This document shows, piece after piece, positions 9,980-29,481 of a stretch of DNA of 64,000 nt. The notes beneath the pieces were generated by a model. The model made no database searches. It had not been told where the DNA came from and saw only the letters and a program-made list of their open reading frames with translations. This DNA is from a virus: the IMG/VR virus record IMGVR_UViG_3300044732_001099, positions 1 to 64,000 of that record; one strand, 5' to 3'. Positions within the stretch are counted from its first letter, which is position 1. Every line of letters starts with the position of its first letter. The position numbers and the translations under genes were made by a program.

Positions 9980-12900
9980 ATGGCACAGCCCACTGTAAAC
10001 AGATTTTATAAGGGCCTAAATTCTGATGTAAGCCTTACCGATAGAGCACAAGATATGTATCTTGATGGTCATAATATAAGACTTTCTAGAAGAGAAGAAG
10101 GTACTTTGTGGGCCGCAAACATTAAAGGTAATGAAGAAACATTTCAACTAAAAGAAAATTACATACCTGTGGGATCCGTTGAGTTCGATGGATTCCTTTT
10201 TATCTTTTCAGTAAATCCTGACATAAATACAAGTGAAATAGGTTCATATCCATCGCCAGATCCAATAACAAATGAGATAACAAGAGATTATAGACCTCTT
10301 AGAAACTATACTCCGCAAATATACATACCAGATATTAACGATGAATGTTTAGTATCTACCATTAGTGATCTTGGTGATTTTAGAACACAATTGCTAGGTT
10401 TTAGATGCGATAGGCCATTAAGAATAGAAGCGCGTTTAGATTTTGATGGTTCTGTTAATCTTTACTGGACAGATGATAATCTTCCATGGCGTGTAATAAA
10501 CAATGGATTTGTATTAAAAACTGGCAGACCAAACAATCGATATGTTACTGCCGGCATGATACAATCTGGTTATATCAATGGTATAAATGAAAATGCTAAT
10601 CACCCTACTGTAGATTTTCAAACATATGGATCTGGAAGTCTTAAAGTTGGCAACTATTTTTTCTTTGTAAGATACACAGACCTTAATTTTTTATCAACAT
10701 CTTTTCTTGGACAATCAGGTCCAATCCCGTTATTTGTAAGTAATAATGCCGGTGCTGCAGTTGTGACATTTAGTGGAGAATCAGACGACTTTTCTAATAA
10801 ATCTGTAAACTTACTCATACAAAACTTAGATCCAAACATATCTTTTTTTGAAATAGGTTACATTCGTTATTTTGGCCAAGATATATTTGAATGTTTTCTT
10901 ATTGACAAAAGATTTAGTATAAATGGTTCTACATCTGCAGGAGCAACAATAACAGGGAACGAGCCACTAGTAGCATTGACTATAGATGAGTTAGTTGTTT
11001 ATAAACCAAGTGACGCTCTTTATTGCAAAGATATAGCACAAGCATTTAATACTTTTTATTTAGCAAACACTAGAGGCCCTGTTCTGGACCATCCAGATTT
11101 GCGTAGGTTTATGTGTGCTCTTACGTTATCTGAAAATTATACAAATAATGGCCCGGCCGATGAAATACGCACAGATCAAAATAACAATCCATATTCTACA
11201 AATGGAAATGACACAGAAGAAAATGTAGGATATTTTTCTGGAGAAACATATTGCTTTGCTTGTATACCAGTATTTAAAGGTGGTTTTACAGGCTTACCAT
11301 ATCCAATGACAGGCTATGATAACTATACTAATCTTATGGTTAATAGCAATCAAGATGGTATATTTAGATTTAGAAGATACTTTGATGCGCCGGCATACGA
11401 TGGCACAGATACATTTATAAAAGGAATCAATGTAAACACATCTGGTGCGGCAACTATATATAGCACATCACAATGGTTGCAAGAAAATCTTATTGGTGTT
11501 TATGTGTCAAGAGCAGAACGTAAGCCAAATCTATTGTTTCAAGGATTAAGTCTTCGTTGTTACAATGGAAAAGTAAATCCACTTATTAGTAGGTTTGGCC
11601 TAATACCAAATTTCAAACGATATAGATTTGATAATGATACAGTTTATAAAGATATAAATTTAAAATTTAGCTCAAAAGAAGATTGGAAAACAGATAGGTT
11701 AATACCTTTGTTTGAGCCAGCGACTTATATGTATTATAGACAATGGACTAGTTTTACACCAGATAATGTAAATTCTTGGTTTCATTATGTTAGGCCATAT
11801 AATTTTTTAGATCGAAATGATTTTGTAGATCCAAATAGTCTATCAATATTTTCAACGGATTATTATATTGGTAGAGAAGTTGTTCCCGATAATTCATATG
11901 TAGAACTTTTAGCTACAACATCTTATCAAGATGATTGGAATAGAGAATCAACTTCATTAAATCCATTTCCTATTAATAATACTTCAGCTATAGGAAACTG
12001 GAAACAAAATGCAACAGATCCGGGTCCTTTTTCAAGTTTTTGGTTTCCTTTTGAGCCATTATATTATGATGCAAGTATTCCAAATAGAGGTGTTGTGCAA
12101 ACTTTTGTAGGTTACAATCAAAATGGTTTAAACATTGTAGCACCAGAAGGATTTAATGCTAACTGTTTAAATATAACTGGATGGACTGCAGTTCCTAATA
12201 CAAGATTTGTATCTCGTTTTGATGAAGGAAAAATAGCTAGTCAAGATGGATTGTATTATTTTGAAGTAGGTCATGATACATATCCTAATGTAAAAGATTA
12301 TGAAATAAGTTTACCTATAGCAACTCCTGACTATGTAGCTATAACTAATGCTCCTGTTTACGATGCACCATATCAAGCACTGACACAGAGGTATGATCAT
12401 TTTGTAGATGATTGGAATAGATCAATAGTTAACACTTATATAGCAAATCCAAACACATTAAACTATACAGATTTTTATGATTTTAAAAATACTGTATTTA
12501 GTCCTATAGGATTATTTCAAAATATAACTGATTTTTTAAATGTACCACAACATACATACTATAGGGGCGATTGTATTGTCTCAAGAACATACATAAAACT
12601 ACAAAATGCAAGTAACGAAAACATTAGTCAGTTTTTTTATGATGTTATAGCAAATGTCGAAGGGGTTGGAGTTGCTACAGTAGAAAATACAAATGCAGCT
12701 CAAGCATTAGATGCATTTCAAAATGGATATGGTCACTGGGTTTCTGTTGTGACTGAAAACAAATATAATCCAAGTTACAGATACGAACTAGGTAGAAACT
12801 ATTTCTATCCAAAGACTAATCCTCTTAACCCGGGTATTGACTTTGCCTGGATATATGACAGTCCAGAAAGTTTCTTTTACAACAAAGGAATGTCGGAATA

Positions 12901-14062
12901 TCTTGGACCTAGACAAAGCGTAGGTATTGATTTATATCAACCATTAAGCGACAATAGATTTCCAACAAGAATAAGACCTAGTCTTAAACATATTTTTGGT
13001 GCCCTTCGCGATGGATATAGGCAGTTTATTCCCGCCGATGCAAAAGACTTTGACTATGAGGCAGGAGAAATACAAGCAATAGTTTACATGTTTGACTACT
13101 TGTATTCTTTCCAAAATAGAGGCATTAACTTGCATCCAATCAATGAACGTGTAACGCAAGAAGGTACTGCCGGCAGCACTGCTATTCTTGGCCAGTCAAC
13201 AGGCCTTACTGAGTTTAGGCAAGTAATACAAAAAGGATATGGCACACAACATAGATTTGGCGTAATAAAAACACCACAAGCAATATACTGCATTGACTGG
13301 AACAAACGATCAATCATGCGTATTGTTGGTGGACAAGTAGAACAACTTGATATTAAAAAAGGAGTTCAGTCTTGGTTTAGAAGAATAGTAGCACTAGGAA
13401 GTACCGGCTATAGCGATGCGCTTGAAATATTACCAAATGAACACACATGTGGATTAGGTATTCATGGAGTGTACAATCGCAAATACAAAGATATTGTTTG
13501 GACATTAAAACTTGGAGAAGAAACAAATACTATAGTATTCTCAGAAGAGATGGACACTTTCTTAGGTACGCATGGTTACAAACCAAACATGTATGCTCAA
13601 GTAGAAGAAGATCTTTATAGTTTTGTTGACAATAAAGCTTGGCTTCATGATGTAAATACAAAGTATGATAATTTTTACGAACAGCAAGATGTTTGGAAAA
13701 TAAAAGTATCAGTTGCCGAGGGAGCAGAGATTACTAAACACTATGACAATATTATCATTAGCAGTAACAACAGAGTTTTTAGTGCAATAAAGTTTGAAAC
13801 GCAACATCAGGTAGCAGAGCAAAGACCTTTCCAACCAACAAACGAGTTTTGGTACGCGCCAACATACAGAGAAAACGAATGGAGATTACCGGTGCGTAGA
13901 GCTGACAATGTTAAAGAACCAGAACTAAATATTTACGATGACTTTGGATTTGATAAAACACCTATGAGAGGTCGCTATATGATTGTAGAACTAGAATACG
14001 ATGGCGACAAAGAACTATGGGTAAGAGAACTAATGACATTTTATAACATATCATTTACTTAA
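9980..14062 (+). CDS. Tail stabilisation / muzzle protein (P22 gp10-like)
   Basis: 1360 aa with N-terminal NRFYKGLNSD...YLDGHNIR, NLYWTDD, YGTQHRFG and a C-terminal YRENEWRLPV...MRGRYMIVEL, typical of crAss-like muzzle proteins. Confidence 0.8.
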   Translation: MAQPTVNRFYKGLNSDVSLTDRAQDMYLDGHNIRLSRREEGTLWAANIKGNEETFQLKENYIPVGSVEFDGFLFIFSVNPDINTSEIGSYPSPDPITNEITRDYRPLRNYTPQIYIPDINDECLVSTISDLGDFRTQLLGFRCDRPLRIEARLDFDGSVNLYWTDDNLPWRVINNGFVLKTGRPNNRYVTAGMIQSGYINGINENANHPTVDFQTYGSGSLKVGNYFFFVRYTDLNFLSTSFLGQSGPIPLFVSNNAGAAVVTFSGESDDFSNKSVNLLIQNLDPNISFFEIGYIRYFGQDIFECFLIDKRFSINGSTSAGATITGNEPLVALTIDELVVYKPSDALYCKDIAQAFNTFYLANTRGPVLDHPDLRRFMCALTLSENYTNNGPADEIRTDQNNNPYSTNGNDTEENVGYFSGETYCFACIPVFKGGFTGLPYPMTGYDNYTNLMVNSNQDGIFRFRRYFDAPAYDGTDTFIKGINVNTSGAATIYSTSQWLQENLIGVYVSRAERKPNLLFQGLSLRCYNGKVNPLISRFGLIPNFKRYRFDNDTVYKDINLKFSSKEDWKTDRLIPLFEPATYMYYRQWTSFTPDNVNSWFHYVRPYNFLDRNDFVDPNSLSIFSTDYYIGREVVPDNSYVELLATTSYQDDWNRESTSLNPFPINNTSAIGNWKQNATDPGPFSSFWFPFEPLYYDASIPNRGVVQTFVGYNQNGLNIVAPEGFNANCLNITGWTAVPNTRFVSRFDEGKIASQDGLYYFEVGHDTYPNVKDYEISLPIATPDYVAITNAPVYDAPYQALTQRYDHFVDDWNRSIVNTYIANPNTLNYTDFYDFKNTVFSPIGLFQNITDFLNVPQHTYYRGDCIVSRTYIKLQNASNENISQFFYDVIANVEGVGVATVENTNAAQALDAFQNGYGHWVSVVTENKYNPSYRYELGRNYFYPKTNPLNPGIDFAWIYDSPESFFYNKGMSEYLGPRQSVGIDLYQPLSDNRFPTRIRPSLKHIFGALRDGYRQFIPADAKDFDYEAGEIQAIVYMFDYLYSFQNRGINLHPINERVTQEGTAGSTAILGQSTGLTEFRQVIQKGYGTQHRFGVIKTPQAIYCIDWNKRSIMRIVGGQVEQLDIKKGVQSWFRRIVALGSTGYSDALEILPNEHTCGLGIHGVYNRKYKDIVWTLKLGEETNTIVFSEEMDTFLGTHGYKPNMYAQVEEDLYSFVDNKAWLHDVNTKYDNFYEQQDVWKIKVSVAEGAEITKHYDNIIISSNNRVFSAIKFETQHQVAEQRPFQPTNEFWYAPTYRENEWRLPVRRADNVKEPELNIYDDFGFDKTPMRGRYMIVELEYDGDKELWVRELMTFYNISFT

Positions 14063-14065
14063 AAC

Positions 14066-17000
14066 ATGCCTCCATTTACAACACTCAACGGCCAAACAGG
14101 ATATTTTGATAACAGTGGACAGTTTGTTCCTGCATCACAAGAAGAGTACAACCAACAATTTGGCATGCTACAGCAGTTTGGTAATAATCCATTTATATCT
14201 GCACAGCAAACATTTACACAACAACCGCAATCTATTCAGCAAGGTGCAATACAACCACCTATGGCTGGCCAAATGACTAATGAGCAAAAAGTAATGCAGG
14301 CTCAAGGAGATGATTCTCCTATGTTAGGTAATATGCCATACGTACAAAAAGGAAATGAACTTGGAGTGCAAAAAGGAAAATCTTTTTTCCCATATAATGC
14401 ATCAACAGCAAGTGGTCATCCATTAAACACAGCAACAAATACAGTTTTTAATGCTTATGATTTAACGACTAATCGTAAAAATGATATAGTAAATCCATAT
14501 GTTGCACAAGTTAATTTAATGCGATCGCAAAATGCTGCTAGCTTTTTAAATAAATTAAGTAATAAACCTACTGCTTCTGCTGCAACAACTCAAACACAAG
14601 TAACAGTACCTCAAACAACTGGAGCAACAGAAATAATACCAACTTCAACAGCAGAACAAGCAGAAGGCGGAAACTGGTTTTCAAATATGTTTAACAAACC
14701 ATCTGTAAAAGGAGTGCCAGCTGCAGATAAAATTACAAATGTTATAGAAAAAGGACCTAGTTTATTTAAGCAAAGTAAAGATTTTTTTGGTAGTGAAGCA
14801 GGGCAAGCAACATCTGCAGGCATAGGTGCTGGATTAGGTGTAGCTACTAGTCTTATTGGAGCTAATGCCTCTAAATATGACCAACGTGTAGGAATGTCAA
14901 AACCAAATGCTTTTAGCACTATAGCTGGAGATAGCACAGTAACGCAAATAGGATTGAATCCTGCTCTTATGGGAGCAACTGGAGGACTTTCTGCAGTAGC
15001 TGGACTTGGTATAGATTTGGTTAAAAACATTGTAAAATATAATAAACAAAAAGACAGTTACGAAAACAAAAAACTTGCCGTTGATACCATGCAGCAACTT
15101 GACGACGCAAGAGAAAATATGAAGCCAGACTATACTGGTTATGCTAGAAGTGGAACGCAAGTGAACCCATATTTAAAAGCACAGTATGGAACAAAAGCAA
15201 TAGTCGAAGGAAAAAAAATGGATATTGATAGTGATGAATACAGAAGACTATACAATTCTGGAAATCTTATGAGAGTTGATGAAGGAGGAATGCCTACAAT
15301 GACTACTGAAGATTTAGTTATTACTGGTCAAATGACTGATAACACTAGAGAGCAAAGAGAAATACAAAAAGAAAGAGATGCGCAAGGGTTAAATTATAAC
15401 TGGAGTTCTGGTTCTAACAATCCTTATATGAGTCAACCAAAAAATACTGTACCTACTGGAATAAACTCAACAGTTCCTAGTGTGCCACCATTTCAACCAA
15501 TATTTAATCCTGAAGACGATTATTTAAAAGATTATGTTGGAAAATCATTAGGTGAACAACCTTTTATATTTAGCAATGCTTCAGAAGTAGGAATGGGTTA
15601 TAATCATTTTGGTAATAATGCATGGATGTCAACTGGTCTTGGAACTGTAGATGATAGTCCAACTATTATGGGTCATTTGGCGAGTCGTTATAGTACTAAT
15701 GAAGCTTATGAAGCTAGTAAAAAAGCTAATGATATTCCATCTTTATATTTCTTTTATAAAGATTTAAGTAAAGAAAAAAATTGGCAAGAAGACGTTGGCG
15801 TTTCAGCAACTAAATATTACGACAATTTAAATGAATTAAATGATGGTAGTAGTTATTTAGAAAGAGAAGGTAGATTTATAGATGATATTGTTAAAAAACA
15901 AGGTTATGGGCATAATATTGTAATGGATGAAAATGGAAATAAACTTATTAGAAATTTTACTCCTGATAAAGATAAATTCATGGGTTCTGTCACATTGACT
16001 CCAGAAATGTATAAAGCAATACTTGAAGCTCCAAATCAAACAGAAGCAAAGCGTAGATTAATGCAAATGGCCAAAATACCACAAGACGTAGATATGGATA
16101 AACTATTTATTCACATGAACTTAAGTAAACCAAAAAATTTATCAACTTATTTTAAAGCAAAGACAGTAAATCCTAATTCTGTAAGAAATTGGCACGATAC
16201 ACCTACAGGAACTATATATATAAATAGAGTAAAACAAGATGGAATAGGCCATTACAATGTAACCAAACATCGAATAGGTGGTATGGTGCAAAATCCGTAT
16301 TTAAAAGCTCAATATGGGACAGATTCAAAAAAAAAACCTATATATACCGGCCAAGATAAATCACCAAATTATAAATCAAATGTAACTATAAATGGTAAAC
16401 AAATAGGCAAAGGAAGTCAAGAATATAAAGATGCATATGATTCAGGTAACTTAATGTCTGTAGATTATGATGGAATGCCAGTAATGTATAGCAATCAACA
16501 AGCAGAAGTTACAGCAGAAGCTCCGGCATGGTTAAAGCAACAAAGAGAGCGCGAAAAAGATCCAGTTGCTTTTGCAGTAAGAAAAGGTACTGGTGATTTT
16601 GCAAAAGGAACAGCTCAAGGAGTAGGTACTGCATTAACTTATGCAGGAGAAGTAATGAATACTCCATTAGCTATGGCAGGTGAATTATTATCAGGCAGAA
16701 ATGATTATTATTCTGCATTACCTAATTTAACAAGGTCAATGAAAGATATGGGATTAGAAAACCAACTAACATCTGAAGATAAAAAATGGTTACCAAAGAA
16801 CGACCAAATGACTCCTGGTGCATTGGTATCTGATAATCCTTTAATACAAATGGGTATAGATGTACCTTTAGATATTTTAACAGGAAAAGGTTTTAAAGCA
16901 TTAACTAAAATGCCAAAATTGCCAATAGTTGGAAATTTAAATGAATACATAGAAATGAATAGCATGGAAAATGCATATGATATTCTAAAAGGTGGTAAAA

Positions 17001-17947
17001 AAAGAATTATAGATAGAGACAAGTTAATAGCTATTAAAGAAGCTATGACACATAGTAGAAAAACAAATGTTGAAAATGCTCATAATCAGTTTTATGATGA
17101 ACTTGTAAATACACCAGAAGGCAGAAGAAGATTAAAGTTTATTGGATTAACACCAGAAGATATAAATAAACCAGAACTTACATTTGACAATACAGGATCA
17201 AAATATAAATTAGGAACAGATCAAGGTGTAAATATTGATTTAGAACAAACAATTGATACTTATACTACGGATGGTTTAGGCGATATGATTATTTATGATC
17301 ACGAAATAGGTCATGCATTGTCAGACGATTTAAGAAGAGCAGAGTGGCAAGAAATGATAACTAAAAAATTAAATAACGATCCTGCTTTTAAAGAACAAAT
17401 GATTTTAGAAGCTCAATCTAAAAACATGACTTTAGAAAAACATCTATGGGAAAAACTTCTTCCTAAATATAGATCAATATTTGATGATGATTTAACCGAT
17501 AATGTATTTGCAGGAGAAATGAATGATGTAACACCTAGAGCTATTAAAAATCAAGATTATGCAAGTTATTTTAGTGAACCATTTCCTCATTTAAGAGAAA
17601 TGAGACAAAACATAGTAGATAAAGGATATACAAATCATAGATGGGACGAAGTTACAGATGAAATGTTAGATGATTTTATTAAAAACGAAAAATTAAAACC
17701 TGAAGGAAAAGATAGAATATCTAGTTTTATAGAAAATTCTCCAGAAAAAAGAAAAAAACTTTTGTGGTATATGAATAATTTTCCATCATTAGTTCAAACA
17801 TTAGTAGGAGGTGCAGCGACTACAACTGTACTTGGGTCTACATTAGACGGAGGTACTTCAGGTCCAAGACAATCTAATGATTTACAAAGTGGTCAAGGTC
17901 CAGAACAAAAAAGACAAGGTGGCAAAACTAATCCATACTTAAAATAA
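14066..17947 (+). CDS. Modular virion cargo (ejection) protein with a zincin-like domain
   Basis: 1293 aa after the muzzle gene. It has Gly/Ala-rich hydrophobic segments, two NPYLKAQYGT-headed modules and HEIGH at 17300-17314 with a downstream Glu. It ends KRQGGKTNPYLK. Confidence 0.65.
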   Translation: MPPFTTLNGQTGYFDNSGQFVPASQEEYNQQFGMLQQFGNNPFISAQQTFTQQPQSIQQGAIQPPMAGQMTNEQKVMQAQGDDSPMLGNMPYVQKGNELGVQKGKSFFPYNASTASGHPLNTATNTVFNAYDLTTNRKNDIVNPYVAQVNLMRSQNAASFLNKLSNKPTASAATTQTQVTVPQTTGATEIIPTSTAEQAEGGNWFSNMFNKPSVKGVPAADKITNVIEKGPSLFKQSKDFFGSEAGQATSAGIGAGLGVATSLIGANASKYDQRVGMSKPNAFSTIAGDSTVTQIGLNPALMGATGGLSAVAGLGIDLVKNIVKYNKQKDSYENKKLAVDTMQQLDDARENMKPDYTGYARSGTQVNPYLKAQYGTKAIVEGKKMDIDSDEYRRLYNSGNLMRVDEGGMPTMTTEDLVITGQMTDNTREQREIQKERDAQGLNYNWSSGSNNPYMSQPKNTVPTGINSTVPSVPPFQPIFNPEDDYLKDYVGKSLGEQPFIFSNASEVGMGYNHFGNNAWMSTGLGTVDDSPTIMGHLASRYSTNEAYEASKKANDIPSLYFFYKDLSKEKNWQEDVGVSATKYYDNLNELNDGSSYLEREGRFIDDIVKKQGYGHNIVMDENGNKLIRNFTPDKDKFMGSVTLTPEMYKAILEAPNQTEAKRRLMQMAKIPQDVDMDKLFIHMNLSKPKNLSTYFKAKTVNPNSVRNWHDTPTGTIYINRVKQDGIGHYNVTKHRIGGMVQNPYLKAQYGTDSKKKPIYTGQDKSPNYKSNVTINGKQIGKGSQEYKDAYDSGNLMSVDYDGMPVMYSNQQAEVTAEAPAWLKQQREREKDPVAFAVRKGTGDFAKGTAQGVGTALTYAGEVMNTPLAMAGELLSGRNDYYSALPNLTRSMKDMGLENQLTSEDKKWLPKNDQMTPGALVSDNPLIQMGIDVPLDILTGKGFKALTKMPKLPIVGNLNEYIEMNSMENAYDILKGGKKRIIDRDKLIAIKEAMTHSRKTNVENAHNQFYDELVNTPEGRRRLKFIGLTPEDINKPELTFDNTGSKYKLGTDQGVNIDLEQTIDTYTTDGLGDMIIYDHEIGHALSDDLRRAEWQEMITKKLNNDPAFKEQMILEAQSKNMTLEKHLWEKLLPKYRSIFDDDLTDNVFAGEMNDVTPRAIKNQDYASYFSEPFPHLREMRQNIVDKGYTNHRWDEVTDEMLDDFIKNEKLKPEGKDRISSFIENSPEKRKKLLWYMNNFPSLVQTLVGGAATTTVLGSTLDGGTSGPRQSNDLQSGQGPEQKRQGGKTNPYLK

Positions 17948-17952
17948 ATATC

Positions 17953-20900
17953 ATGAATCCATATCTTAACAAAAAAGCTATTGTTAGCAAAAGAGGACAG
18001 TGGGATTATCCTAGACAAGATACTATTGTCCCTACTCCAGACGGTAGTATAACAATGCAAGGAGTAAACTATCCTGTGTATGGACAAGATGAAACTGGAT
18101 ATGGACAAATGATGTACCCTAATCAAGAGTATAAGTTTCCCGGAAAGATGGTATATGAAACACCAATGGCAGATGGTGATAATACAGAAGTGTTTAATAA
18201 ATCTGTATCAGGCGCAACAGATTGGTTTGCATCATTATTAGATAATCCCGAATATTATAAAAGATTAAAAAATGAAGTTAAACAATCTAATGCTTTAAAT
18301 AATAATGTAAAATATGATTCAAAAACTGGTGCCGAAAAAATACTAGATCAAAGAAAAACTGGATTTTCTTCTGTAAAGTTTATAGAACCAAATAGTAATC
18401 TTAGAGATGAAGTAGCTATTGTAAATGATTTAGACAAAGACGCATATGGAGCGCACGTATTAAGAGGCATTAAATATTATGAACCTCAATATAATAGTAA
18501 TGGCTATTTAACAAAAGATATAGCTTCAATAGGGCCAAACAAAATAGGAATCAATCCTGTAATGTATAATCCAGAAAATAAAGACAATTTAAAAAATCTA
18601 TTAGTTCATGAAATAGAACATGCTACACAAATAGCACAACCTGGATATGCAAACCCTTATAGATTTAGTAATTACGTTGAAGTAGATAATGGGACATTAC
18701 CATTGTACAAACAAGACAATAATATAACTCCATACGCTGAACAAGTTATTAAAGAAAACATTTTATCAGACGATCCATATTATTCCGACATACAAGAAGT
18801 AATGTCAGGAAAAAGGCAAATAGAAAACATGTTAGAAAATGTGCCTGAAAATACTTTTACTAAACCGTGGAAATATGGAGATGAAATAGATGATGAGCAT
18901 TTTAATTACATATTTAGTGATGATGAAAATATATCATTTAAAAATGACAATATTAGAAATGCTTTATTAGGCGATAAAAAATATAGTGATTTATTAGACG
19001 TAGAAAAAGTAGATTTAAAAAAAAGATTATCTAACATAATGATGAAAATTGCTATGGAAAACTCTAAAAACCCTTACACAGATTATGCTAGAAATGGCAC
19101 TATGATTAAACGTGCAGATGGTTCGTATTCTGAACGCGGACTATGGGATAATATTAGAGCAAACAAAGGTTCTGGAAAAAAACCAACAGAACAAATGCTT
19201 GAACAGGAAAAAAAGATTAAAAAACAAGAAATGCAAAGTGGAGGTAAAACTAATCCATACTTGCAAGCTCAAGCTGGAACGCAAGCTTCAACTTATACCT
19301 GGGCAACAGGTTCTAATGCACCACAAACAACACAACCTGTAAATACATTAGGTTCCGGCCACAGTCAAACACTGCCATCAACATATAAACCTGTAGGTGA
19401 TTTAACTAAAGTTACTAAAGAAAAACCAAAAGGATCTGGTGGCTCAGGGGATAATTTATTTATGCAAGGGGTTGGTGCTGTTGACAAAGCAATAGGACAA
19501 GGAGCTTCTTATTTATTAGGTGCTGCAGGAGAAGCATTTACGGCGCCTGCATCTGCGTTAATAGAAGGTTTTCATTATTTAAGTGGAAAACCATATAACT
19601 TTGGCAATGCCATGCCTAATCCAGGCAGAATATCAGCTTATGCTAGTGGTGACTCTGATCTTTATAAAGATAATCGCCAAAAAACGCTTACTGAACTTGC
19701 GGGTGTAAATAGAGATGACAATCCTGTAGGGGCTATGATATTAGATGTTTTCACTCCAACATTACCAATAGCTTCTATGGGTAAAGCTGCAAATGCATCA
19801 AATGCAATAAAATATGCACCAAAAGCAAATGCTTTAACAAACCTTGTTACAGACCCATATAGTTTTATTAAAACAATGAAAACTCCTACTATAAATCCAA
19901 ACGTAGGATTAAAGTTTGTAGATGAAACTATTGATTCACAAAAAGCTTTACAACGGGTTAATCAAAATGTCATTAATCCAGCAATGCAACCTCAACTTGC
20001 AGTTAATGCAACGCAAGCAGTAGCAAAAGAATATACTCCTTGGACTATGCAAGAAATGCCAGGATTGCATATTAAATCTACTATGTCAGGTTCTCCATTT
20101 GAAAAACAATTATCTAAAACTGGAGAGTTAAATGTTAGTAATATACAAGCACACATAAATAAATCAGATGTAAGTGCAGCAGATAAGTTTACATTACAAA
20201 AAGTTCTTGATGAAAAGTTTGCTGGAAAACAAAAAATAGACTACAATGAGTTTAGAAAAGCTGTTCAAGAAGAAGCAGTAACATTAGAAAGAAATATAAT
20301 AGAAGACGATAATTGGGCAAATTATGGAGTAGGTAGATTAGATTATCCAGGATTAAAACCAGAATCTTATAAATCTTCAATACAAAATATAATAGATGAA
20401 TCTCAATATTATAGTACAATAAAAAATATAAAAAAAGAAGATTTAAGAAAAATTATAGATAATGGCGAAGAAAAATATTTAATAACAGATAGATTTGGTC
20501 GTGGACAATATATACCAGCTGATAAAATAGATAATCATTTAAATTACGAAAAAAATATAGCTGATGATTTTTTCAAAAATACCTATCCAAAAAAGGCAGA
20601 ATATGAAAAACTTTTAACTGAAATTCCTGAAACAAAAACATTTACATATCAAAATATAGATAAATTTGGAAAAGGTGATGCTAGACATTATAATGATGCT
20701 GCATTAGCCCATACAAGAACAATGATATCTAAAGAAGAACCTGATATAGTGCATTTTATAGAACAACAAAGTGATTATTGGCAGAGTGGTGCTGGTAAAA
20801 ATCCAGTTAAAATAGATTATGAAAAATGGAATCCAAGAATTGAAAAAATGGAAAAAGACTTGGCTGATGGTTATGCCGATTTAGAATACATGAAAAAAAA

Positions 20901-22887
20901 TAATATGTCTTTAGCTGGAGATAAAATGGAAGGTTATCAAATCAAACAATTTGAAGACATCCTAAAAGCAAAAGAAAGAGATATAAGACTTAATAAAGGA
21001 ACTATGGCCAATCAAGAACAAAAAGAGTTTCTTGGAAAAGCACATCAAGAAAGATTATTGCAAGAAAATGTACAGTATGCTGCAGAACAAGGTAAACAAA
21101 AGGCAAGATATCCAACAAGAGAAACGGCCGCAAAAATACAAGGTTATAGTCCTGTAAAAAAAGCATTATCTTCTGAAGAAATAGAAAAACTTAATGGTAG
21201 AAAAAGAGGATTAGAATTTGCAATATCAGAACATTACGCAACATATGGCGATGATCCAAGATTTAATAGTATTATTAAACCATTTGAAGAAGAGTTAGCT
21301 GAAATAAACAAGTATAAATATAAACCAGGAAAAGATGTTTATGCAGATCAACATGAAACAATATTAAGAAAATATGATGATACACCTAAGATGATACAAA
21401 AAACACTAGGTGTTAAAATTAATACTGTTACCGATGCAAAAGGAAATACTTGGTATGAGTTTGATATACCAGATGCATATAAACAAGGCAAAGCAGAAAT
21501 AAAAGCATTTAGTATTGGTGGTGGAGCTGCCACTGCTGCCGGCGCAAGTCAGTTAAACAAAGAAACTCCACAAAAAAGATTTGGTGGCGATACTAACCCA
21601 TACTTAAAAGCACGTTCTGGTATCTACGTTAAATCATCAAATGAAAAAGTAAACTGTGATTGCGGATGGTCATGGGATATTTCCGATGGAGGTAGTGAAC
21701 CTTACAAATGTCACAAATGCGGTAACGATAATAGTTACGCTAAAGGACAATACGGATTAGAATCAAACTTACCTGAAGCTCCTAAAAATATGTTTTCTGA
21801 TTATAATCCAGTATCTAGTGATTATACAGCTGCTATGAATGGAATGATGAAAGCAAGAATGGCAACTGATGCAGAGTTTGGAAATCTTGCTGCAAAACGT
21901 ATGACATCATTATATCCAAAAGAATATACATTTACTGGCGATGAAATGTTTTATGATGAAAAAGTAGATGTTCCGGCCGGTGCTACTGGAACTCATTACA
22001 CAACTGGTGATGGTAATGTAATGTTTCCAATAATACAAGAAGGACAAGATGGCAATCTATTTTTTAATAGATATGCTAATCCATATAACAAAGAAGCCAT
22101 GAGATTTGAATCTCCGCAAGATGCAAGTTACTTTGGTGAAAACTATAAAAACATTGCTCCTATGATGTATGATAAAGGACAAGAAGGGCTTAAAGCAAAA
22201 ACTAAAAATGAATATCAATATCAATGGAGTAATCCAACACCAGGAAAACCAGGAGGTGCAAGTTCACCCAATCTTGTAATTTCGTCTCAATTTAATAAAT
22301 CATTACCGTACAATATTTTAGAAACTATAGATCCAAGTGGTATAACATCTTATCCTGATGTATATGACGCTTGGACTGATGGAAAGTTTACATATAGTGA
22401 TATTACAGAACCTATTTCAGCTTTGCCATTAGTTGGTAAAATGTTTAAAGCAGGTAGTAATGCTTATAATATTGCAAAAGGTGTAGATATATTTGATACT
22501 GTAGATGATATTTATAATGATAATGTTAAACCTAATTTATCTTCTGCAAAAGGAGTAAAAAAATCAGAATTTAAATATAATCCTAAAATGGAAAAAGGAG
22601 GTGAATCTGATTTGGTTCCAGTAGAAGTAGAACGTAGCGAGCGCATTTACGACCCAAAAGGTAACTTACTTAAAGAGATTCCTGCAGATGCTCCTACGCA
22701 CGAAGAAGGCGGTGTAAAGCTACATCTTAGAGCAGGCACACTAGTATTTCCAAAGAAATATTACAAGGCCTTAGACATGGCAAGCACGCTTCCAGAGTTT
22801 AATAAAATCAAAGAGAAGATGTTAGATAACGCGGAAAAAGCTTATCTTCGTGGTGAGCCTTATTCATCAGGCGGTAAAAGAAGTTAA
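17953..22887 (+). CDS. Multi-module virion cargo protein (zincin HEIEH, HTR/EQQSD domain, Zn ribbon, THEEGG domain)
   Basis: 1644 aa starting MNPYL, with HEIEH at 18607-18621, EQQSDYW at 20761-20781, CDC..CHKC at 21655-21720 and VEVER...THEEGGV near the C-terminus. Confidence 0.65.
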   Translation: MNPYLNKKAIVSKRGQWDYPRQDTIVPTPDGSITMQGVNYPVYGQDETGYGQMMYPNQEYKFPGKMVYETPMADGDNTEVFNKSVSGATDWFASLLDNPEYYKRLKNEVKQSNALNNNVKYDSKTGAEKILDQRKTGFSSVKFIEPNSNLRDEVAIVNDLDKDAYGAHVLRGIKYYEPQYNSNGYLTKDIASIGPNKIGINPVMYNPENKDNLKNLLVHEIEHATQIAQPGYANPYRFSNYVEVDNGTLPLYKQDNNITPYAEQVIKENILSDDPYYSDIQEVMSGKRQIENMLENVPENTFTKPWKYGDEIDDEHFNYIFSDDENISFKNDNIRNALLGDKKYSDLLDVEKVDLKKRLSNIMMKIAMENSKNPYTDYARNGTMIKRADGSYSERGLWDNIRANKGSGKKPTEQMLEQEKKIKKQEMQSGGKTNPYLQAQAGTQASTYTWATGSNAPQTTQPVNTLGSGHSQTLPSTYKPVGDLTKVTKEKPKGSGGSGDNLFMQGVGAVDKAIGQGASYLLGAAGEAFTAPASALIEGFHYLSGKPYNFGNAMPNPGRISAYASGDSDLYKDNRQKTLTELAGVNRDDNPVGAMILDVFTPTLPIASMGKAANASNAIKYAPKANALTNLVTDPYSFIKTMKTPTINPNVGLKFVDETIDSQKALQRVNQNVINPAMQPQLAVNATQAVAKEYTPWTMQEMPGLHIKSTMSGSPFEKQLSKTGELNVSNIQAHINKSDVSAADKFTLQKVLDEKFAGKQKIDYNEFRKAVQEEAVTLERNIIEDDNWANYGVGRLDYPGLKPESYKSSIQNIIDESQYYSTIKNIKKEDLRKIIDNGEEKYLITDRFGRGQYIPADKIDNHLNYEKNIADDFFKNTYPKKAEYEKLLTEIPETKTFTYQNIDKFGKGDARHYNDAALAHTRTMISKEEPDIVHFIEQQSDYWQSGAGKNPVKIDYEKWNPRIEKMEKDLADGYADLEYMKKNNMSLAGDKMEGYQIKQFEDILKAKERDIRLNKGTMANQEQKEFLGKAHQERLLQENVQYAAEQGKQKARYPTRETAAKIQGYSPVKKALSSEEIEKLNGRKRGLEFAISEHYATYGDDPRFNSIIKPFEEELAEINKYKYKPGKDVYADQHETILRKYDDTPKMIQKTLGVKINTVTDAKGNTWYEFDIPDAYKQGKAEIKAFSIGGGAATAAGASQLNKETPQKRFGGDTNPYLKARSGIYVKSSNEKVNCDCGWSWDISDGGSEPYKCHKCGNDNSYAKGQYGLESNLPEAPKNMFSDYNPVSSDYTAAMNGMMKARMATDAEFGNLAAKRMTSLYPKEYTFTGDEMFYDEKVDVPAGATGTHYTTGDGNVMFPIIQEGQDGNLFFNRYANPYNKEAMRFESPQDASYFGENYKNIAPMMYDKGQEGLKAKTKNEYQYQWSNPTPGKPGGASSPNLVISSQFNKSLPYNILETIDPSGITSYPDVYDAWTDGKFTYSDITEPISALPLVGKMFKAGSNAYNIAKGVDIFDTVDDIYNDNVKPNLSSAKGVKKSEFKYNPKMEKGGESDLVPVEVERSERIYDPKGNLLKEIPADAPTHEEGGVKLHLRAGTLVFPKKYYKALDMASTLPEFNKIKEKMLDNAEKAYLRGEPYSSGGKRS

Positions 22888-22920
22888 CAATAAAATCTAT
22901 AACATTAAAAATATAAAGTC

Positions 22921-24330
22921 ATGACAAAATGTAAAGGCGGTTGCCAAATGAAATCTGGTGGTAAAACCTGTGCAAAATGTGGATGTGATATGGATTCTAA
23001 AAAAGAAAAGTATGAGGAAGATGATGATATGAAATCTGGTGGTCGCGCTTGTATGAAATGTGGTGGTAAGATGCATAAGTCTGGTGGCACTATAAGCTCC
23101 TGCATGAAGTGCGGTGGTGGGAAATACACGTTTGGCGGTAAAACCGGATGGATGTCAAAAAAAAAAAATGATGTAAGAAAATATCAAGCTGGAGGTCTGG
23201 CATCTACATCTGCTGATAAAGAAATAGCATTAAGTAGTGGTGCGTTTAATGTAGCAGAACCTACTTATGACGCAAGCGTTATTTCCAATGAAAAACCTAT
23301 GCAGATTACTGACAATGCAATGCAAGGAACAAATCAGTTAAATTACAAAGAAGCCGTACAATCCTTTAGAAAAAAAGAAGTTGATAAAACATTGCCAAAT
23401 TTTGGATATGCAAAACAAGAACAAATAAAGTTAAATGAGTTGATAAGAAAAGACATATCTACTGGTAATGCAAAAATGGATTTGCTTAGTGAAGATGATA
23501 TTATTGGAGAAAAAACTCTTGGTGCTATGCGTGCATACGAAGCAAGTGGTCAATACACAAGACCAGAGGGTTTTAAAGATAAATGGCTAGCCGAGTACAA
23601 AAAGCAATGGGATGAAATGCAGGCAACAGGCAAGTCTCCAAAAGGACCTGCCCCAAAAGCTACTGTAGAGCAACCAAAAAAAGAAGAAAAGAGGGAAAAA
23701 ACTCTTGTTGATAGCATTTATGATTATTTTAAACCACCTAAAAAACAACAAGCAGTTAAAGAAACTCCTAAAAAATCTCCAAGACTTGTAAATGAACTAG
23801 GGTATGAATACTACATTGATAAAAAGACAGGGTTTACAGTTGTAACTATTCCTGATGAAGATATACAACCAGATGAAAGCGAAAAATACACAGATGACTT
23901 TGTTAAAAAAGAAAAGAAATCTAAAAAAGGCTCTTTCTTTCCATCGGCATCTGATATGATGGGTGGACTTCAAAGTTCTGTTGATTATGCTGGAAATGCA
24001 TTAAGTAGTTTTATTGGTAATACTGCTGATTTTATAAAAAATAATCAAAACAAAACTACTGATAATAAAAAATATTCAGTAAAATCTAGAGCTGCATCTG
24101 TGTCTGCTGAGAAAATATCTCAAAAAAAATCTGGAGTAACGGTATTGAGAAAATATGATTCATCTGGACCGTCTTATACAAAAAGTAAAATTGTTGTAAA
24201 AGACAATATTACAAACAAAACACACACTGTAACTATACCACAAATGTTTGATAAAGCTAAAGGAAAATACCATACAATAGAAATAGCTGGCAAAAAACAT
24301 AAAATATTTCTTGATCCAAATCTAAAATAA
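22921..24330 (+). CDS. Cargo-region protein with Cys/Gly/Lys-rich MKxGG repeats
   Basis: 469 aa; the N-terminal ~90 aa contain MKSGG x2, MKCGG x2, HKSGG, YTFGG and YQAGG. Confidence 0.6.
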   Translation: MTKCKGGCQMKSGGKTCAKCGCDMDSKKEKYEEDDDMKSGGRACMKCGGKMHKSGGTISSCMKCGGGKYTFGGKTGWMSKKKNDVRKYQAGGLASTSADKEIALSSGAFNVAEPTYDASVISNEKPMQITDNAMQGTNQLNYKEAVQSFRKKEVDKTLPNFGYAKQEQIKLNELIRKDISTGNAKMDLLSEDDIIGEKTLGAMRAYEASGQYTRPEGFKDKWLAEYKKQWDEMQATGKSPKGPAPKATVEQPKKEEKREKTLVDSIYDYFKPPKKQQAVKETPKKSPRLVNELGYEYYIDKKTGFTVVTIPDEDIQPDESEKYTDDFVKKEKKSKKGSFFPSASDMMGGLQSSVDYAGNALSSFIGNTADFIKNNQNKTTDNKKYSVKSRAASVSAEKISQKKSGVTVLRKYDSSGPSYTKSKIVVKDNITNKTHTVTIPQMFDKAKGKYHTIEIAGKKHKIFLDPNLK

Positions 24331-24334
24331 AACC

Positions 24335-26395
24335 ATGAAATACAATCCATATTTACAGGCACAGTCAGGTATTGAAGCTAAAGATGAAGGAACATTTCCA
24401 CAATATCAATATTATCCATATCTATACGACAGTACATCAGTTGGATCATTTCCCAGAGCAGTACCATGGAGTAATCCTATTGATAATAGAATGAATATGA
24501 CTGATGAAAACTACATTCAAATGTTTGATGAAGGAAGTAAAAAAATAGTCCTAAACAGAGGAAAAAGTGAAATAGGAATAAATAACTACGATAGAATGTT
24601 TCCTGATAAATCATTTTACACAGATCCTACTTCTAGTCCACAAATACAACCAAGAGAATCAAATCAACCTGTATTATTGCGCGATAGAATACAACCTATT
24701 GATTATTCTAAATTAGATGAAGAATATGACAATGCAGGAGCTCCAGTATCTTCAAGTACAACGCCAAATATACAACCATTACAAAACTTTAAAATAGAGG
24801 ATGTAAGAAATCCTATACCAAACATACAGCCTCTACAAAACTTCAAAATAGAAGATGTAATGGGGACAACTGTTCCTATACCAAATCCAGATTTAGTAAA
24901 CCCTGAAACACTAGAGTACGATCCTTTTACAGGATTGCCAGTTAAAAAACAATTTGATCAAAATATTTTACCTGATTTAGGTTTTGCAACAGATGAGCCA
25001 CAAGTAAGTTTAGACATTTCACCATATAAAGACGATGTAGAATACATTAGAGCTCAAAGACAACAAGAACCTGAAATAAAAGATGATCCTGAATTTAGAA
25101 AAAAGTACAATGATGCTTTAAACTTTTTAGCTCCATCTATAAAACTAATGACCGGTATTAACCCAAATAATAACAAAATTCGGTCAACAGGTTATAAGGT
25201 GCCAGTTCCAAAACCAGAAACAACTACAACAACTACAACAGAAACACAAGAGAAAAAAAACAAGTTTGGCGTACCAGAAGCATACTATCTAGGTAAGTCT
25301 ATGCTTGACGCTACTGCACTTATTAGAAATATGGTGCAGCCACAGCCACCATCTTTGCAGATGAAAATACCTCATTATGAAAGACAAAGATTAGACCCTA
25401 CACCATACGATGCTATGCGTTCTCAGATGCGCGATCAAGGCACACAGGCATATAGATTACAAAGAGAAAACATATCGCAGGCAAGCGACCTTATGAAAGG
25501 TCTTTCTGCAGTAACATCAGGCACTCAACAAGGTCTTATGAATGTAGGTATGCAACAAGCTGGCGCCGAGCAGCAGATACAAGGTATCAATCAGCAGATA
25601 TCTATGCAGGAGCAGCAGCAACAAACACAAATGCTAAACCAAGAGGCTGCTACTAACTACCAGATTCAACAACAAGCTCAACAATACAAAGACCAAATGG
25701 TATCTGCTCAGTTGCAAAGACTTGGTGATACTGCCGGTGCATACGCAAAATATGTAAACATGAAAGATATTGCTAGCAAACAAGATACTGTAAATAAAGC
25801 TGCTATTCAATCTAATCTTGATATTCAAAATGCAATGCTTCAATATCAGATGCATAAAGATGCAATGGATTCAGATGAATATAAATCTGCATGGGCCCAA
25901 CACTGGACTAAAACACTAGATCAAATGTCTACAGATAAAATTAAAAATGAAAAATTTGGAGCACTAAAAGAATACTATGGTGAAATGTCGCCAAGGTATA
26001 GTGACTATCAAAGAATAGCAATGGACCCTACATTTACTAAATCCTACTATCAAAATAAAAATAATTATGAAAACTTTCAAAGATTATATCCTGGCGGCGT
26101 AGCACCTGATAAAACAAAATATGCTAATGATGATGATTACAATAAAGCAGTTGCAGAGTACCAAAAAGCAGAAGCAAGCAGCAAGGCATTTACTGAAGAT
26201 AAATCATACAAACAGTTCGAAGAGATGCAACAATTTTGGACTGAAATAGGAAATGAACGTAACGAATCTGGTGAACGAAAAAAGTTTGCAGACCAGTACA
26301 TGCAGCAAAGGGGTTATTACACTACAGAACAACTATTAGAAACGGTGAAAGAGGCATTAGACCGAAGTAAGCAGTCTTTAGAATTTGGCGGATAG
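24335..26395 (+). CDS. Virion cargo protein, Gln-rich coiled-coil C-terminal half
   Basis: 686 aa starting MKYNPYLQAQSG, with an internal 14-aa tandem repeat and a Q-rich helical region. Confidence 0.6.
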   Translation: MKYNPYLQAQSGIEAKDEGTFPQYQYYPYLYDSTSVGSFPRAVPWSNPIDNRMNMTDENYIQMFDEGSKKIVLNRGKSEIGINNYDRMFPDKSFYTDPTSSPQIQPRESNQPVLLRDRIQPIDYSKLDEEYDNAGAPVSSSTTPNIQPLQNFKIEDVRNPIPNIQPLQNFKIEDVMGTTVPIPNPDLVNPETLEYDPFTGLPVKKQFDQNILPDLGFATDEPQVSLDISPYKDDVEYIRAQRQQEPEIKDDPEFRKKYNDALNFLAPSIKLMTGINPNNNKIRSTGYKVPVPKPETTTTTTTETQEKKNKFGVPEAYYLGKSMLDATALIRNMVQPQPPSLQMKIPHYERQRLDPTPYDAMRSQMRDQGTQAYRLQRENISQASDLMKGLSAVTSGTQQGLMNVGMQQAGAEQQIQGINQQISMQEQQQQTQMLNQEAATNYQIQQQAQQYKDQMVSAQLQRLGDTAGAYAKYVNMKDIASKQDTVNKAAIQSNLDIQNAMLQYQMHKDAMDSDEYKSAWAQHWTKTLDQMSTDKIKNEKFGALKEYYGEMSPRYSDYQRIAMDPTFTKSYYQNKNNYENFQRLYPGGVAPDKTKYANDDDYNKAVAEYQKAEASSKAFTEDKSYKQFEEMQQFWTEIGNERNESGERKKFADQYMQQRGYYTTEQLLETVKEALDRSKQSLEFGG
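24764..24860 (+). repeat. Intragenic tandem repeat, 2 x PNIQPLQNFKIEDV (54-nt period)
   Basis: Copies start at 24764 and 24818; identical peptide with six synonymous codon differences. Confidence 0.9.
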
Positions 26396-26434
26396 AAATA
26401 TTCAAAAATATTTTTTTATTAACAATGGCTTGTT

Positions 26435-26442
26435 TATCTTTG
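26435..26442 (+). promoter_or_regulatory. Candidate Bacteroidota -7 promoter element (TATCTTTG)
   Basis: Exact TAnnTTTG match in the AT-rich gap 26396-26469, upstream of the two genes ending with the RNAP. Confidence 0.35.
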
Positions 26443-26469
26443 AATGATCAAGCCTTTATATTTATAACT

Positions 26470-29400: not shown

Positions 29401-29481
29401 CATAATAATCGTTTTAAATCAGCGTCACCACCAGATAAGTATTCAACAAATAAAGCAAAAGCTAATCCAAAAACTGAATAA
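26470..29481 (+). CDS. Large virion cargo protein preceding the RNA polymerase
   Basis: Long open frame. ATG 26470 (MTFPSFVTTGG) is preferred over 26425 because the upstream 45 nt look like a promoter/leader. Confidence 0.6.
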   Translation: MTFPSFVTTGGTVDIPTVPLERKALDLTPLIQQLMMNKKASSTGTTAKGDEKDPDIKGTTGQTEQWYDNYTKNQQEIKNLVNWFGTDVVTSQPEYRRLINEQNEITNPAVKQRLENNKQRLDAYDALVKEKGASGMINMDALSRYGIGMAHSDWSYFMQRGQTPEGLKVTRPGEFAWMEDFSFTSDIATFDDALKALNERYAGLGTSEFSTGGGSDQIYQDLKDDWTFLVSEHNNSVTTKKSNNNIYGENPRQIGQLEAVKQQALQSAFSGSFGKGMEGDDMANGLAGKFLSLTAETVPASKVGLPGNKSVKAIFQSKAYNDVFTDGQPNQGDYLDAKGNVKEAEYKKAVEDWNTKNQEAGKNYYKTHDGYYFKAGTKDENGNDIGGTLDQDALLGDYQRFIYDIVDAETNKRLTTVDSFKSDQTKTITATETWQQMANDAKAAEAAVLAANQEDFSVAVANNIGIEEDQFKKLLGGDLGDYSIVSELADFFTGKQSWSELVSDYKNESTRYTSDDDLNEMTYSSVSPFILNKDENGKTTYLPNPDFSGDKINIYKAAMKKHAIEEQNMSEDEAEAYAEEKTKKAKNAHKTLNDNYLTYGIQGMTSFDGTKATVVYQDEDLLKLINASWFDDIGGNKIGKTASQLFNNQLAQVGTTVVNGGQLFGGVFRFESIDEEHSFVNLGIASNAGAKAKYKMTINGKEYKQGAFIPLSVVDQMNAEQLKDFNSKVDYGTNGYWNIQNGMATTNGNPDKTKRVAGMGKNSEKVLFELNSTGGANAIAESGTSITSNVNLIGKKADIIAYWTTNGTTLTRQMPAYAQDDTKKVFWDEAEKLDRKYAIYGDDRPNAPKEKIELARKNVNELAKAAKIQIGSNAYKELEKTLYTTDYIERKNIIAKSLAIRNNVQGTANWDKSPKLVNETIVGIDGKVKDWAKSQLYLQEEKNSKGEELYRVTTAVEVQAQMAAANAEKTKQKIITHHNNRFKSASPPDKYSTNKAKANPKTE

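Follow-up and report, generated by a model that had tools for sequence, protein, structure and literature searches.

Crassviruses are among the most abundant phages. In Bacteroides phage crAss001, the muzzle gene is followed by the genes for gp45 (C1), gp46 (C2) and the RNA-polymerase proteins. Mass spectrometry found all of these products in virions; one part of C1 occupies the tail barrel and another sits on the portal (available sections of Bayfield et al. 2023, PMC10172136). Here, we describe a short peptide that recurs in the genes found at the same position in another, uncultured crAss-like phage. The window is the whole 64,000-nucleotide (nt) stretch of DNA that was analysed, positions 1 to 64,000 of IMG/VR record IMGVR_UViG_3300044732_001099; it carries the virion module of the phage, whose whole genome is one 86,966-base-pair (bp) contig. 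Comparison of related sequences indicates that the peptide, whose general form at block ends is (K/R)-x-GG-x(2-3)-NPY-(L/I/M)-(K/Q)-A-(Q/R)-x-G, is very probably the joint between exchangeable cassettes of the post-muzzle proteins and the site at which they recombine.

Multi-module proteins delivered with the virion are already known, as polyvalent proteins, crassvirus cargo and fused polymerase polyproteins. The available passages on polyvalent proteins describe large proteins with many unrelated modules, two to fifteen recognisable and functionally disparate domains per polypeptide, which are encoded beside virion genes, thought to be delivered with the DNA and subject to extensive mosaicism (Iyer et al. 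2017, PMC5512222). The window genes likewise lie among virion genes. Comparison with relatives reveals several unrelated cassettes in their proteins, none of them identified by Pfam or PHROGs, and no Pfam domain of the polyvalent class was detected. The word ‘linker’ does not occur in the text of that paper, and no junction peptide appears in its available passages. In phi14:2, the fused RNA-polymerase polyproteins gp65, gp66 and gp67 come from the same gene block and show the same fusion and fission of neighbours, with cleavage proposed and unproven in the available part of the preprint (Drobysheva et al., bioRxiv 10.1101/2020.03.07.982082). The window also encodes a presumably fused protein, of 7503 amino acids (aa), and it lacks the junction motif.

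Polymorphic toxins offer a second comparison. In these, a short peptide (VENN of CdiA, PxxxxDPxGL of Rhs) stands between a constant delivery part and variable payloads and is the recombination point for payload exchange; the Rhs junction motif is also a self-cleavage site. Such toxins depend on bacterial secretion, are accompanied by immunity genes and have one joint per protein, whereas the window has several joints, no immunity genes that we could see, a phage particle in place of secretion and unrelated sequence. The T4 capsid-targeting sequence, the single N-terminal leader of internal proteins that is removed by the prohead protease, is likewise short and, like the window motif, could make unrelated proteins travel in the particle. 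Unlike that leader, the window motif is internal as well as terminal and is present in multiple copies; we found no prohead protease, and the motif is absent from other proteins presumed to be cargo.

The motif lies in the large genes that follow the muzzle gene (9980..14062; Pfam crAss_MUZ, E=1.6e-39, and crAss_MUZ_C, E=1.5e-06; PHROG 28748). There are six of these, all on one strand, in a setting of virion genes where the capsid and muzzle genes are contiguous and on the same strand; all coordinates given here refer to the plus strand. Gene 1 (P0001, 1293 aa, 14066..17947) begins at 14066, immediately 3′ of the muzzle gene end at 14062, and is followed by gene 2 (P0002, 1644 aa, 17953..22887), gene 3 (P0003, 469 aa, 22921-24330) and gene 4 (P0004, 686 aa, 24335-26395). 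All four are defined by their open reading frames (ORFs) and translations, together with a cassette table and hydropathy for gene 1 and comparison with relatives for gene 2. A first-pass annotation of the sequence had stated that genes after the muzzle encode proteins packed in the capsid, and this is supported in that the muzzle adjoining gene 1 is confirmed by Pfam and the crAss001 products at that position were found in virions (PMC10172136, available sections). In gene order, genes 1 and 2 stand where crAss001 has C1 and C2, cargo proteins that are packaged and ejected. Database searches add little: P0001-P0004, together with nine and two relatives, have no significant match in Pfam or PHROGs, P0001 and P0002 match PDB sequences only at chance level (best E=0.39 and 0.099), and a tblastn search with P0001 matched nothing in 50,697 phage records.

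The first-pass annotation listed eight copies of the motif, and a six-frame scan with translations locates all of them (8/8) where it had placed them; the shorter relatives that it named, AKGQYG, KMEKGG and KYQAGG, are also present in the translations. Copy 1, GTQVNPYLKAQYGT (15152..15193, with GTQVNPYLKAQYG at 15164), closes the constant anchor of gene 1, and copy 2, GGMVQNPYLKAQYGT (16277..16321, with GGMVQNPYLKAQYG at 16292), joins the two cassettes of that gene. Copy 3 is a C-terminal half-motif at the gene 1 end, GGKTNPYLK followed by the TAA stop (17918..17947, listed at 17930), and copy 4 is an N-terminal half, MNPYLNKK, at the start of gene 2 (17953..17976, listed at 17956). Further into gene 2 comes the variant copy 5, NPYTDYARNGT (19069..19101), whose counterpart in relatives is NP[YF]-x-x-x-AR-x-GT. 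Copy 6, GGKTNPYLQAQAGT (19240..19281, with GGKTNPYLQAQAG at 19252), is represented in relatives by GGKINPYMQAQSG or GGKTN[PQ]YF[NK]KFRPGG. Copy 7, GGDTNPYLKARSGI (21583..21624, with GGDTNPYLKARSG at 21595), forms the right edge of the gene 2 variable cassette, after a Gly/Ala-rich tail, and copy 8, MKYNPYLQAQSGI (24335..24373, with MKYNPYLQAQSG at 24344), stands at the start of gene 4.

P0001-P0004 (4092 aa) contain six matches to the strict pattern NPY-[LIMT]-x(1-2)-A-[QR]-x-G, and 5000 residue shuffles gave no match at all. NPYL is found seven times, against a shuffle mean of 0.047 and a maximum of 3, and GG-x(2-3)-NPY four times, against a mean of 0.009 and a maximum of 1. When the genome was scanned as 95 stop-to-stop frames of at least 100 aa (32,153 aa), all strict matches (6/6) lay in genes 1, 2 and 4, after the muzzle, in agreement with the proposal that the motif is confined to cargo genes. 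The looser NP[YF][LIMTV] is found 12 times genome-wide, 11 of them in the genes at 14066-17947, 17953-22887 and 24335-26395 and one in the ORF of 7503 aa (29484-51995, from the ORF list), which presumably encodes a fused virion RNA-polymerase polyprotein. Neither this polyprotein nor the 1018-aa protein whose gene precedes it (26425-29481, also from the ORF list) has a copy of the junction motif in the genome-wide frame scan. The core [KQE]A[QR]xG appears five times in the window's 22 plus-strand genes, each time within a motif copy. Codons for N, P, Y, L, A and Q vary synonymously among the eight copies, and from this we infer that selection acts on the peptide and not on the DNA. A conserved nucleotide ‘recombination box’ was ruled out, as the codons differ between copies.

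Gene 1, compared as a set of 14 proteins (P0001 and 13 homologues), provides most of the evidence for joints. It consists of an anchor (aa 1-366) with two Gly/Ala-rich hydrophobic segments (aa 248-266 and 300-319, by hydropathy), a cassette at 367-742, a second cassette at 743-1288 and the C-terminal half-motif. The constant anchor of ~366 aa stops at copy 1 in 14/14 proteins, and the ~40 residues preceding that copy are the most conserved stretch of the gene. Directly 3′ of copy 1 lies a block of ~52 aa, header 1 (15194..15349), which alignment and BLASTP relate to the block after copy 2, header 2 (16322..16519), the latter with a 19-aa insertion by alignment. These paralogous headers (~55 aa) share the invariant residues G-K...S-x-E-Y...Y-x-S-G-N-L...V-D...G-x-P.

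Relatives of gene 1 differ from each other by whole blocks whose ends fall at the copies. Homology of gene 1 to L002 and P0010 stops at copy 2. P0014 is P0011 minus the block between the copies, with 81% identity over 468/468 aa directly after copy 1, and the block that follows copy 2 in P0010 sits directly after copy 1 in P0015 (87% over 164 aa). Still other blocks follow copy 1 in P0016 and P0017. P0007 and P0008 are 100% identical in their first cassette and diverge right after NPYLK. The sharpest case is the pair L001 and L003, whose gene 1 sequences were compared in 60-nt windows: 51-60 bases per window are identical as far as column 1380, 22-46 between there and column 2280, and 56-60 in the remainder. 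The right crossover lies within copy 2 itself: the mismatches finish with the third bases of its Asn, Pro, Tyr and Ala codons, and from Gln onward the two sequences agree. When the 14 proteins were all paired with one another, the BLASTP alignments had 437 internal ends, of which 40% fall no more than 15 aa from a motif start (5.7% expected) and 66% fall in a window from -20 to +90, against 19% expected. Breakpoints of module gain and loss had been predicted to coincide with the motif, and in the aligned relatives those of gain, loss and exchange do so in several events, including the crossover within motif codons.

A very recent cassette swap is seen in P0006, from a 10,238-bp contig. This protein is gene 1 up to ~aa 943, then has another last cassette without HExxH, then the same C-terminal tail and NPYLK; compared with 16890-17800 of the window, the left edge of the swapped cassette is not at an NPY copy.

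In gene 2, a constant N-terminal part (1-~640) is followed by a variable cassette (~680-1190), a tail with copy 7 and constant C-terminal parts. Across ~500 aa (about 680-1190) the window protein is unrelated to P0020 and to P0021, and homology to gene 2 of L001 resumes at aa 1208, seven residues ahead of copy 7. A Gly/Ala-rich hydrophobic segment lies 10-18 residues upstream of the tail copies in P0008, P0020 and P0025. In gene 4, the first ~150-300 aa, counted from copy 8, are not common to the two available relatives, whose genes start differently: homology begins at aa 148 (L016) or aa 298 (L017). It had been claimed that each copy sits at a border between unrelated blocks. Relatives confirm this for the copies at 15164, 16292, 17930/17956, 21595 and 24344, and the case is weaker for those at 19069 and 19252, where some relatives have variant elements.

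Joints also serve as gene boundaries. Gene 1 ends in GGKTNPYLK-TAA and gene 2 starts with ATG-NPYLNKK 5 nt later, with NPYL(K) duplicated around the stop and start. The same split arrangement is present in IMG/VR contig L009, at a different joint than in the window: there, gene 1 is the bare anchor, a 375-aa frame ending in ...GYARNGTQVNPYLK-stop, and MNPYLNKK follows 5 nt on. It may be that this split allele can replace any joint by the same recombination, because it is itself flanked by motif sequence. A profile of the motif and header, searched against 1.84 billion cluster representatives with a cut-off of E<=0.001, found 41 proteins, and many of their genes begin exactly at the motif (profile position 13 is residue 2). 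Among the 41 clade proteins tabulated, 17 start with MNPYL (17/41) and seven end with NPYLK (7/41); P0151 (415 aa) has the motif at both its start and its end, and P0149 is the product of a gene made of motif and header, 94 aa in all.

At the boundary itself (17938-17955), gene 2 is in the -1 frame relative to gene 1, TTA-AAA-TAA lies upstream, and reading in -1 meets no stop for 8 codons. The spacing between genes 1 and 2 is the same in L009 (9984-10003), and in L001 (13639-13648) the two genes are in frame with TAA-ATA between them. From these sequences, occasional fusion products of genes 1 and 2 could arise by frameshift or read-through. Recoding at this boundary was set aside, as the sequences show nothing more than ordinary tight gene packing.

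Taken together, these comparisons show that the exchangeable blocks begin and/or end with the motif. The same peptide stands in the reading frame of its gene at all copies, so a crossover between any two of them yields an in-frame protein. Relatives differ by the products of just such events, namely deletion from copy to copy, replacement of the block between copies and exchange of the block after a copy. Where the joint is split (NPYLK, stop, 5 nt, ATG, NPYL) it becomes a gene boundary, so that the same blocks occur fused or as separate genes with the motif at their start and/or end. At the protein level, the peptide would be a short glycine-flanked capped turn or helix acting as a context-independent hinge between modules that must each fold, be packed and be threaded, N- to C-terminus, in sequence through portal and tail. 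An Asn-Pro start and a Gly end suggest a capped helical turn; this is drawn from general helix-capping rules. We hold the hinge as the main protein-level role only tentatively, at a little short of even confidence, and rank it ahead of a cleavage site, which in turn ranks ahead of a docking handle. The combination of cassette joint and hinge is, with moderate confidence, our best explanation of the locus as a whole.

Several observations weigh against this reading. The left edge of the gene 2 variable cassette (about aa 640-680) lies at another conserved element and not at an NPY copy, and the left breakpoint between L001 and L003 is ~40 nt past a weaker element, NPY[MI]SQ...TVPTG. Of the gene 1 alignment ends, 34% fall outside the -20 to +90 window, and the 437 ends are not independent events, with alignments between the paralogous headers inflating the count. 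None of the 22 loose ends listed for the lake metagenome contigs (0/22; 14 more exist) lies within 100 nt of a motif, though these contigs, from four runs, are no real test of recombination (216-1267 nt among those listed, depth 2-7). One contig joint in the lake data (14747 to 20419, side 21, a single contig) is not at the motif either. Conservation of 12-14 residues exceeds what a passive linker would call for, and orthology to C1 of crAss001 is by position and architecture only. With the headers after copies 1 and 2, the hydrophobic tails and the left-edge element of gene 2, the joint is part of a larger constant frame around each payload.

The NPYL form was found only in a narrow lake-water clade. 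The stretch itself is present in 24 lake-water metagenome rows, five of which may be its source, with no RNA dataset listed among them. A degenerate-DNA scan of IMG/VR for exact NPYL[KQ]AQxG returned six stretches, three from the clade and three in unrelated contexts resembling chance. Among gene 2 homologues, the motif is present in 10/10 clade members versus 0/32 other large proteins whose resemblance to gene 2 is limited to its 70-aa N-terminal module. GG..NPY was found in 0/12 proteins at the C1/C2 position in five Suoliviridae and Flavobacterium phage Fpv1, and on this count we rejected an occurrence of the NPYL form throughout Crassvirales. The 32 other large phage proteins do contain [KEQ]AQxG, 24 times against 3.0 expected (500 shuffles never exceeded 9), and most of these matches have the form GG-x-(L/I)-P-(K/E)-A-Q-x-G. 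This form has the same K-A-Q-x-G core after GG, and in the window N-P-Y-L stands for x-(L/I)-P. Given the enrichment of the core in these proteins, the window motif is a clade-specific form of a wider junction peptide in the large virion proteins of these phages. In literature searches, judged mostly by title, we found no paper describing the peptide.

Gene 2 contains other small modules that are more widely shared. Its first ~70 aa (aa 1-75, 17953-18180; GQWDYP...ITMQGVNYPVYG...) recur at 48-89% identity in large proteins of bigger phage contigs (100-143 kb), many of which carry SLT, LysM, YkuD, amidase or PG-binding Pfam domains, and 409 proteins among 8000 scored contain this module at E<=0.001. 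Between copies 5 and 6 lies the element RADGSYS-x-RGLWDNIRANKGSGKKPT (19102-19239, P0002 aa 384-429), a very widespread mini-module whose G[LFM]WDN core is present in 32/32 unrelated large phage proteins and 9/11 clade gene 2 homologues. After copy 7 comes a zinc-ribbon-like mini-module, Cys-x-Cys-Gly-Trp-Ser-Trp ... Cys-His-Lys-Cys-Gly (21625-21760, P0002 aa 1225-1270); related zinc ribbons are found at the ends of P0016 and P0017 and in 7/32 unrelated large phage proteins.

The correspondence with crAss001 can be drawn more closely for C1. In both phages these genes come next after the muzzle gene and ahead of those for the RNA-polymerase proteins, and both gp45 (aa 129-160) and gene 1 (aa 248-266 and 300-319) have an N-terminal Gly-rich hydrophobic segment. 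C1 of crAss001 is a single protein of 842 aa, whereas the window has two proteins, of 1293 and 1644 aa, made of exchangeable cassettes; no repeated junction motif is described in the available sections of the crAss001 paper (PMC10172136). The portal-bound domain of gp45, residues 425-552 in that paper, is Pfam crAss_CARG1 (PF25725; 424-555, E=2.3e-66), and this family has no match at E<=0.1 in P0001-P0004 or the 1018-aa protein. BLASTP to gp45 gave a best E=0.98, and hhalign probabilities were 0.15% for the header, 0.47% for the C-terminal domain and 0.27% for the anchor; with all probabilities below 1%, these searches were rejected as evidence of homology. Among the 120 matches to gp45 listed, of 4587, all are copies of it with 97-100% identity. 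Its sequence does contain EGGSHEENPY at 446-455, inside the portal-bound domain, and FAYGG-DTNPY at 560-568, directly after it. These matches are suggestive but too short to count. The aromatic-x-GG peptides SAYGG, NAFGG and FAYGG of gp45 (aa 207-210, 425-428 and 560-563) lie just before the helix bound in the tail barrel (214-245), at the start of the portal-bound domain (425-552) and just past its end, so GG peptides may mark segment borders in crAss001 C1 too.

The joints could, as an alternative to hinges, be processing sites at which a polyprotein is cut, for example after GG or within NPYL-K, to free its modules in the capsid or the host. Zincin-like peptidases are predicted to process virion-delivered multidomain ‘polyvalent’ proteins (Iyer et al. 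2017, PMC5512222, available passages), and fused crAss-like polyproteins are described as ‘likely cleaved’, phi14:2 gp65 having a zincin-like domain (bioRxiv 10.1101/2020.03.07.982082, available part). Cutting could be done by an enzyme of the host or by a zincin of the phage, located in a cassette or in the RNA-polymerase polyprotein. Gene 1 has an HExxH motif at aa 1079 and gene 2 has one at aa 219; the 7503-aa protein has two (aa 2486 and 6095) and could, on this sequence evidence, supply the protease. The one in gene 1 is HEIGH (17300..17314), a zincin-like candidate in the last, optional cassette, with homologous HEI[AG]HAL cassettes in P0008, P0025, P0026, P0038 and P0139. The one in the N-terminal part of gene 2 is HEIEH (18607..18621), which reaches Pfam SprT-like only at E=0.083 and whose first His is not conserved, the relatives having E-E-x-E-H. 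The occurrence of the same blocks fused, or split into genes at the motif, means that separate polypeptides are tolerated there, as cleavage would require. No peptidase family rises above its Pfam cut-off, however, the P0008 match to Peptidase_M91 (E=0.0025) having 18.6 bits against a cut-off of 25, and genes 1 and 2 of L001 have motif copies and no HExxH, which speaks against cutting by the HExxH cassettes of these two proteins. Cutting at the terminal copies (17 N-terminal and seven C-terminal among 41 proteins) would free only 2-5 residues, the best candidate for cleavage, the 7503-aa polyprotein, is without the motif, the conserved span of 12-14 aa exceeds typical protease sites, and the text of the crAss001 paper (PMC10172136) makes no mention of cleavage, proteolysis or a protease. 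We consider cleavage unlikely, while giving it more weight than the next possibility.

That possibility is a docking or packaging handle. As a short linear motif, probably folded as a capped helical turn, the peptide would attach to a site repeated in the particle (portal wing, tail-barrel rings or muzzle) or clip cargo proteins head to tail, and so load and order any payload carrying it. A motif in multiple copies, found at termini as well as internally, is what such a handle would look like, and the stretch before copy 1 is where gene 1 is most conserved. The crAss001 particle binds short pieces of C1 at 12-fold and at 6-fold sites: residues 214-245 form a helix in the barrel, and a helical segment of 14 residues, unassigned, sits at the muzzle (PMC10172136, available sections). 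The gp45 sequence has GG..NPY directly after the portal-bound domain (560-568) and inside it (447-455); both matches are short and could be coincidence, header, anchor and C-terminal domain have no demonstrable homology to gp45, and the Suoliviridae and Fpv1 proteins at the C1/C2 position lack GG..NPY. Gene 3, the 1018-aa protein and the 7503-aa polyprotein are all without the motif, although their packaging is itself inferred from crAss001. Its absence from these three proteins argues against a general packaging tag, and we regard the narrower handle as doubtful. It is also conceivable that the peptide has no function of its own, the copies being alike through recent duplication or gene conversion and the breakpoints reflecting DNA homology alone. 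The headers after copies 1 and 2 are indeed paralogous, and recombination between copies regenerates a copy, so terminal copies such as that of L009 need no selection. Against this, amino acids are kept while synonymous positions vary between copies, the sequences on either side of copies 6, 7 and 8 are unrelated, cluster representatives that share less than 50% identity still carry the motif, and unrelated large phage proteins contain an excess of the K-A-Q-x-G core (24 versus 3.0 expected). A peptide without function thus seems very improbable.

Returning to the cassette joint, its value is in part practical, as the peptide is a means of reading the architecture of giant proteins that are otherwise unannotatable. 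The comparisons provide direct sequence evidence, down to one crossover in motif codons, that cargo repertoires are shuffled between phages, and the motif is a concrete 14-residue target for tests of packaging, docking or cleavage. If the peptide were sufficient for loading, it would offer a handle for placing foreign proteins in phage particles in laboratory systems. In a broader and speculative version, which we think unlikely, the peptide and its LPKAQ cousins in other Bacteroidota phages would form a plug-and-play code: modules flanked by it would recombine in frame, and the peptide would then be read in the particle as a docking clip (to symmetric portal, tail or muzzle sites, or to neighbouring cargo) or as a cut site, by which the phage loads, orders and releases a changing set of injected proteins.

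Gene 3 has no NPYL. Its start (22921..23200, by translation) has nine GG in ~90 aa among Cys-x-x-Cys pairs, so only the GG half of the joint is present, in tandem; in the whole protein, nine GG are observed against 3.4 expected. The N-terminus of gene 3 is 81% identical in L001.

Upstream of the muzzle gene, the major capsid protein gene (2597-4159) is identified by the Pfam crassvirus major capsid protein family. It is preceded by two genes (185-2591) whose Gln-rich parts resemble the Gln-rich middle of gene 4 (BLASTP E=1.4e-05 and 0.016), a likeness that is probably compositional or due to coiled coils.

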